A DNA stretch of 64,000 nucleotides from a virus. The stretch lies in the IMG/VR virus record IMGVR_UViG_3300023179_000019. One strand, given 5' to 3'. A program made the position numbers and the translations under genes. Shown piece by piece: positions 63,809 to 63,963 of this stretch (positions are counted from its first letter, which is position 1; every line of letters starts with the position of its first letter). Under the pieces are notes generated by a model. The model ran no database searches, was not told where the DNA came from, and saw only the letters and a list, made by a program, of their open reading frames with translations.

Positions 63809-63963
63809 ATTTTATAGTTAAGTGTTATCAGGGTAACGTGTATGGACGCATACACTATACGGGCCTAACTGTGCGAGGAACAGGTCCTGAGATAACCGTT
63901 ATTCGCTTGTCAGATTTAGCTAATTTGTTGACAAATAGACACGATAACACTTAACTATAAAAT
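63809..63963 (+). ncRNA. Candidate structured ncRNA B closed by a perfect 21-bp stem
   Basis: attttatagttaagtgttatc and gataacacttaactataaaat are exact reverse complements; internal hairpins present. Confidence 0.55.

Follow-up and report, generated by a model that had tools for sequence, protein, structure and literature searches.

Genes and structured elements of the locus

The window analysed here, a 64,000-nucleotide stretch of viral DNA (IMG/VR record IMGVR_UViG_3300023179_000019), carries T4-type structural and replication genes in its 64 kb and has a G+C content of about 36%. The large terminase (31005–32690) is approximately 54% identical to the terminases of T4-like cyanophages, and the window also encodes baseplate and tail-fibre proteins, an SbcC-like nuclease and a dCMP deaminase. 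An array of tRNA genes on the plus strand starts at 62779 and runs Ser, Ser, Arg, Cys, Glu, Leu, Leu, where the Cys gene is found by Rfam only. This tRNA (63052–63121, 42.8 bits) has the anticodon loop UUGCAAA, hence the assignment to Cys, and is not listed by ARAGORN. A megablast search with the tRNA region of the window against deposited phage genomes returns tRNA-Ser matches only and no close relative. Just 5' of the array lies a conserved gene for a 182-residue protein (62198–62746) with a HEMVH (HExxH-type) motif, whose only matches are to PHROG families with no assigned function. At the end of the window, which cuts it, is the 5' part of tRNA-Asp(GTC) (63966–64000, plus strand); its identity is known from the near-identical locus L003 (7768–7842).

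The transcription unit that includes element B, the subject of this analysis, begins with a sigma-70-type promoter, TTGACA-16-TAGAAT (63164–63191, plus strand), which is conserved in relatives. It is followed by an rrn-like leader (63202–63231, plus strand) that consists of a boxB-like GAAA hairpin (63202–63217) and a BoxA, GTTCTTTAAAA (63221–63231), and ends 17 nt before tRNA-Glu. This BoxA is the single match in the 64 kb to the consensus GYTCTTTAANA (PMC5725501). Related loci contain 124 matches to the consensus in the sense and 17 in the antisense orientation; most lie within 40 nt upstream of tRNA-Glu (53) or tRNA-Gln (44) and are preceded by the conserved promoter and the same hairpin. 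B is preceded by tRNA-Glu(UUC) in about three quarters of its copies; it often follows this tRNA because tRNA-Glu opens a BoxA-led unit. A BoxA core is present within 700 nt upstream in only 46 of 84 B copies. The same leader stands before tRNA-Gln in many relatives, which suggests that these phages have at least two Nus-dependent units for stable RNAs. In the window, a 62-nt module composed of a stem-loop and a TTGAYA-16-TAGAAT promoter is found at 62710–62771 and again at 63131–63192 (79% identity), one per tRNA block. This module resembles the PeSL (promoter and stem-loop) cassettes of T4-type phages.

Two further elements are located between tRNA-Glu and B. Element A (63319–63518) is a 200-nt RNA with a 22-bp closing stem, the 5' arm of which takes in the ACCA of tRNA-Glu; it is present with 99.5% identity in the sister phage L002 and in L003. 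In other phages, the slot after tRNA-Glu holds an 18-member family of stem-closed RNAs of 210–252 nt, which have short motifs in common with element A, in a different order. Element C (63707–63808), an RNA of some 100 nt with a higher GC content, lies between tRNA-Leu(UAA) and B and is conserved in L001, L002 and L003; it contains a hairpin with the loop AGAAC, which is able to pair with an upstream GUUCU. In L001 and L124, a second C-like copy is located 3' of B and ends in CAGCCAC, which resembles an acceptor strand.

Element B itself (63809–63963, plus strand) is delimited by an exact inverted repeat of 21 bp, identified with a repeat finder, with arms at 63809–63829 and 63943–63963 and 113 nt between them; when extended, the arms reach 26 nt at 92% complementarity. 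The first-pass annotation had described a perfect 21-bp closing helix in front of a partial tRNA-Asp, and this description holds: the arms are exactly complementary and tRNA-Asp starts at 63966. The 3' arm thus ends 2 nt upstream of tRNA-Asp, and the RNase P site of this tRNA lies 2 nt past the helix. Across the 64-kb window, the only near-perfect long inverted repeats are the B pair and that of element A (63319–63340/63497–63518), and all others are at most 88% complementary. The predicted folding energy of the B RNA (plus strand) is -54.3 kcal/mol (z = -5.7 compared to shuffled sequences), and folding exceeds that of shuffles on both strands. A promoter-like site within the 3' arm (63936–63963) has no conserved counterpart in the other copies and is taken to be a chance occurrence.

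Selection on the tRNA-sense transcript maintains the fold of element B

The gene for the 182-residue protein has 221 relatives in IMG/VR, and their loci were used as BLAST targets for B. This search identifies homologues in L003, L001, L054, L076 and L078, and a pattern derived from an invariant stretch of these homologues matches at least 120 IMG/VR viral contigs, with a single match in each. The resulting set includes 88 distinct full-length copies of 145–161 nt, with closing stems of 17–24 bp (mode 20–21).

The architecture that emerges from the alignment of these copies consists of two nested three-way junctions inside the 17–24-bp closing stem, P1. The 5' arm of P1 (63809–63829, plus strand) is followed by an unpaired A and then by P1b, a helix of 2 bp (R-Y, G-C), and the GUAWC strand; these segments together form the conserved joining strand A-R-G-G-U-A-W-C (63830–63837, plus strand), in which G63831 and G63832 pair with C63897 and C63896, respectively. 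Next come P2 (63838–63855, plus strand), a 7-bp hairpin with an invariant GACG loop, in which 5 of the 7 pairs show changes on both sides; a UAYNC strand; and P3 (63861–63887, plus strand), a hairpin of 6 bp with a conserved AA/RAC internal loop and a 2-bp tip. The second conserved joining strand (63888–63897, plus strand) reads U-R-A-N-A-U-A-A and continues into C-Y, the returning half of P1b. It leads to P4 (63898–63940, plus strand), a helix of 3–4 bp (63898–63900 with 63938–63940) that encloses an invariant GC (63905–63906), P5 (63907–63934) and a conserved AAAU (63933–63936), and the element is completed by the 3' arm of P1 (63943–63963, plus strand; GAUAACAC...). The AUAAC of the second joining strand could alternatively pair with the GUUAU of the 5' arm of P1; these bases never vary.

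Several of these helices differ from the initial description of the interior. Of the four inner helices originally proposed, P2 (tgtatg-gacg-cataca), P3 (gggcct/aggtcc) and P5 (ttgtca/tgacaa) are real and conserved, whereas the fourth, ggtaacg/cgttatt, can form in this copy only, as the equivalent columns are U-C mismatches in most relatives; it is replaced by P1b and P4. In alignment numbering, P1b comprises R23-Y89 and G24-C88, and the R-Y pair is AU in 57 copies, GU in 16 and GC in 15, and unpaired in none. P4 is present in 84 of the 88 copies, in the variants G-C/C-G/U·G, G-C/U-A/U·G and G-C/A-U/U-A.

An RNAalifold analysis of the 88-copy alignment yields 40 pairs, 28 of which show compensatory changes; with P1b added, 99.3% of the cells are paired and both-side changes are seen in 29 of 40 pairs. 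The covariation score is 0.618, compared to 0.173 for shuffles and 0.05–0.10 when the partners are slid against each other. Within P1, the pairing of which was a selection criterion for the copies, both-side changes affect 13 of 20 pairs, and the outer 12 or so base pairs vary by compensation, whereas the inner 8–9 bp (GUGUUAUC in the 5' arm) are invariant. Some of the invariance seen in the alignment stems from the pattern used to collect the copies, which fixes columns 18–34 and 39–43 by construction. The ACUA, GC, AAAU and AUAAC strands and helices P2 to P5 lie outside this pattern, and four copies recovered through the protein gene without the pattern, a small sample, agree with the others. 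The pairs with the highest mutual information are helix pairs without exception, and a screen for pseudoknots by mutual information reveals only the nested helices and P1b.

Two observations distinguish the strands. A strand-symmetric mismatch test applied to the B stems counts 30 G·U against 2 A·C mismatches, and the covariance model of B scores 129–174 bits on the sense strand and 24–37 bits on the antisense strand. The excess of G·U and the disparity of the model scores indicate that selection acts on the transcript in the sense of the tRNAs and not on the DNA.

A scan against Rfam 15, suggested by the first-pass annotation, detects no match to 63809–63963 at the gathering thresholds, nor at E ≤10 with permissive filters, among models that include GOLLD, ROOL, tmRNA, Y RNA-like RNAs, ribozymes and riboswitches. 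Judged from its sequence, B is a conserved RNA that is absent from Rfam 15, and it might be among the 8,495 candidate RNAs of the 2023 IMG/VR catalogue (PMC10690425). A reading of the region as a small-protein gene (ORF 63754–63954) was rejected, given that no frame is open across the copies and their lengths are not multiples of three.

Distribution of B and the cassette format of tRNA arrays

Within the sequences searched, the B family appears restricted to T4-like phages that have not been cultured. A blastn search with B against deposited phage genomes finds no match, and no cultured phage with B is known from it; likewise, a scan of 185,579 prokaryote genomes with the B pattern finds none. 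Across 100 loci (936 kb in total), the B model identifies one sense match per locus, and among four near-complete genomes, three carry a single copy each and the fourth lacks B. B is missing from 76 of 80 protein-anchored neighbourhoods. A presence/absence comparison between the same tRNAs, as the first-pass annotation had envisaged, finds B in the window and in L003 and not at the same site in the sister phage L002, where no flank is duplicated. In L200 (109–175), a B remnant with an internal deletion retains the closing stem and half of P2, and the interval from GACGCAU to CGAUAACAC is lost.

This patchy distribution bears on the alternative that B is a MITE-like mobile DNA element whose 21-bp arms are terminal inverted repeats, a reading that the first-pass annotation entertained. 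Mobility would be in line with the presence of B in L003 and the window and not in L002, with its variable position within tRNA arrays and with the internally deleted remnant in L200. However, each contig or genome has one copy, with no second one in 936 kb, and the B model finds no second match within the window. The target-site duplication, which had not been evident from the window alone, is indeed absent when the filled sites in the window and L003 are compared with the empty site in L002. Furthermore, the arms change by compensation, unlike a conserved transposase site, and mismatches in the stem take the G·U form on a single strand (30 versus 2). The MITE interpretation is therefore largely refuted. 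B is a dispensable, shuffled gene cassette and not a transposon.

P1 begins at the CCA of the upstream tRNA-Glu in roughly half of the B copies, and in others, a stem-closed, A-like element of 210–250 nt lies between tRNA-Glu and B. The next tRNA begins 0–8 nt past P1, and its identity varies between Lys, Tyr, Cys, Leu, Asp and Met. In one genome (G001; L204 1472–1680), B is located outside any tRNA array, with stem and core intact, directly behind a promoter-like site (TTGTGA-16-TACAAT). An 83-codon ORF, which has a GGAG ribosome-binding site, follows this copy at a distance of 14 nt. The arrangement in G001, together with a size and junction architecture like those of large aptamers, might be taken to indicate a cis-regulatory leader, that is, a riboswitch or attenuator for the downstream sequence. 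Nearly all copies, however, precede a tRNA of varying identity with no consistent downstream gene, and neither a terminator nor an element sequestering a ribosome-binding site is found, so that we regard this interpretation as very unlikely.

The stem format of B recurs in the tRNA arrays of related phages. In related phage contigs, 682 distinct gaps between tRNA genes of the same strand contain 184 closing stems of at least 16 bp, compared to none in shuffled gaps; the stem lengths peak at 19–20 bp. The loci were partly chosen for the presence of B, which biases the proportions, though not the finding that the format exists. These stems surround about 50 cargo groups that are unrelated in sequence, and the proposal of a general cassette format, a long AU-rich stem with a cargo RNA inserted between tRNAs, is thereby borne out. 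So is the statement that element A, which shows this architecture, is unrelated to B in sequence, as the B model does not match it. Among the stems of other cargoes, 47 of 68 start no more than 3 nt from the NCCA of the upstream tRNA, and their mismatches include 87 G·U versus 21 A·C. Many of these stems resemble one another in sequence: CCAUAUUGAAGCACAUU pairs with AGUGUGUUUCAAUAUGG, the G·U positions are fixed, and an A·C mismatch recurs in one variant. The approximately 50 further cargo groups in the arrays of L002–L200 measure 83–250 nt and are closed by stems of around 20 bp; in the ten loci scanned, none of them matches Rfam. The tRNA arrays also contain known RNAs. In L145, a GOLLD RNA (8336–8801, 213.6 bits) is encoded in one tRNA array with a B copy, and the B-bearing contig L001 encodes a permuted tmRNA (3627–4043, 100.9 bits) with the tag peptide ANDDTFLLAANA, as predicted by ARAGORN. 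A literature search for these cassettes found no description of them. In T4, the leader upstream of tRNA-Gln folds only into an 11-bp hairpin, with no comparable stem.

The existence of a common stem around some 50 unrelated interiors raises the question of whether B is simply a processing spacer, in which the stem would separate, mature or shield the flanking tRNAs and the interior would be functionless. The usual extent of the stems, from the CCA of the upstream tRNA to just before the next tRNA, and the dispensability of B in close relatives are compatible with such a role. Nevertheless, the interior is the most conserved part of B and contains the invariant ACUA, the GC before P5, AAAU and AUAAC, all outside the collecting pattern; three inner helices are maintained by compensation across 88 copies; and the copy in G001 retains both stem and core outside a tRNA array. 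Given these observations, a mere spacer is unlikely. The near-invariant unpaired strands around the multi-helix junctions and the invariant GACG loop could also suggest a self-processing or catalytic RNA, i.e., a new class of ribozymes with the junction strands as the active site, and a location between RNAs, which demands precise excision, would be appropriate for an RNA that might release itself from the tRNA precursor. Yet known ribozyme families give no match even at E ≤10, no conserved cleavage-site motif is recognised, and other cargoes possess the stem without the B core, so that the stem, and not the cargo, seems to determine excision. We therefore consider catalysis by B improbable.

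An rrn-like operon and comparison with known systems

In bacteria, the boxB–boxA leaders of rrn operons assemble the Nus antitermination complex, and a leader–trailer helix brackets each rRNA. The promoter, GAAA hairpin and BoxA at the start of the phage operon suggest, by analogy, that the closing stem of B resembles such a leader–trailer helix and probably provides a site for RNase III. Around 23S rRNA, cleavage of the 27-bp helix by RNase III and other enzymes leaves the 8-bp H1, and 16S rRNA requires a helix longer than 17 bp even when RNase III is absent (PMC10250234). The RNAs that this enzyme cleaves in E. coli usually have a length of two helical turns (PMC1540722). P1 fits the picture of rrn helices in its length, perfection and position, as well as in the split between the variable outer and invariant inner parts. 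A search for a phage-encoded RNase III in five large contigs yields no match, so that the enzyme would be that of the host. It is also conceivable that P1 is only a folding or protection device, because the leader–trailer helix of 16S rRNA matters independently of RNase III.

The interpretation that we favour, with a probability of about 0.65, is that element B (63809–63963, plus strand) is the gene of a structured non-coding RNA of about 155 nt that belongs to an rrn-like operon, would be processed via its stem and would act in trans. Under this model, the phage operon would work on the same principle as the rrn operons of bacteria: BoxA would recruit host Nus factors, allowing the long untranslated transcript to escape Rho, and P1, as the counterpart of an rRNA leader–trailer helix, would pair the flanks of the cargo and let it fold apart from the adjacent tRNAs. 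With its two helical turns, P1 would offer a cutting site for host RNase III, and the 3' side of B would be finished by RNase P cleavage at tRNA-Asp and subsequent 3' trimming. The released RNA is predicted to keep the invariant inner 8–9 bp of P1, as 23S rRNA keeps H1. During infection, the conserved core around the junctions would then function in trans, most likely by binding a protein or another partner.

A broader view, which we put forward tentatively as a possibility, is that the arrays are stable-RNA operons that mimic rrn operons and encode dozens of small RNAs, with a CCA-anchored helix as the common device, and that B, the most widespread of these RNAs, is a trans effector with a new role. 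Such an effector could, for instance, titrate a host protein of defence or RNA processing as a decoy or sponge, or it could be a new ribozyme. If this is the case, phage tRNA islands would be a reservoir of RNA-based tools for host takeover or counter-defence. The B family also reveals an organising principle, a BoxA-led, rrn-like operon with a helix of about two turns around each non-tRNA product, and the rrn-like model predicts dependence on Nus factors, dependence on RNase III and the positions of the RNA ends. The format also provides a rule for finding further phage RNAs, namely a closing stem of about 20 bp that starts from the CCA of a tRNA. With more than 100 natural variants, B is well suited to structure probing and to the search for partners.

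Two types of RNA-linked modules were considered and rejected: a retron msr-msd, given that B is followed by a tRNA and that five large contigs contain no RVT_1 match, and an RtcB-linked module of the Y RNA type, given the lack of an RtcB match in five large contigs and of an Rfam match. Similarly to B, the GOLLD and ROOL RNAs are structured RNAs of phages and prophages that are found near tRNA islands and have no known function (PMC5737381, PMC12286853). They are, however, multimeric cages of 400–800 nt and more, whereas B has 155 nt and matches neither Rfam model. The small stable-RNA genes rnaC and rnaD of T4 (species 1 and 2 RNA, NC_000866) are also comparable to B in their position: they belong to the tRNA cluster of a phage of the T4 type, have the orientation of the tRNA genes and adjoin a tRNA. 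Nevertheless, they show no homology to B in sequence or structure: the fold of rnaC includes a T arm like that of a tRNA and has a terminal stem that is short, and neither RNA has a 20-bp closing helix. The B model (R1), run with filters off on the T4 region, reaches at best 8.5 bits, at a position outside rnaC and rnaD; homology was rejected because the folds differ and the covariance model has no match. The function of rnaC and rnaD has been a riddle since their description, as has that of GOLLD and ROOL, and B adds a compact and well-supported fold to this set.

A further parallel is with the leader–trailer helices of rrn operons. Like an rrn operon, the B unit comprises a sigma-70 promoter, a hairpin and a consensus BoxA, followed by co-transcribed stable RNAs and tRNAs, and each non-tRNA product is surrounded by a long helix of about two turns that is formed by its flanks. 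P1 is longer than 17 bp and is maintained by covariation, with the same format around about 50 cargo groups, and its inner 8–9 bp are invariant, as if retained in the manner of 23S H1. The length of P1, two turns, and its AU-rich perfect pairing would be compatible with cleavage by RNase III as in rrn helices. There are also differences. The cargo of B is a 110-nt RNA and not an rRNA; the phage helix is perfect, shorter (17–24 versus 27–44 bp) and usually starts from the CCA of the preceding tRNA; and a single phage operon uses the format for many different cargoes.
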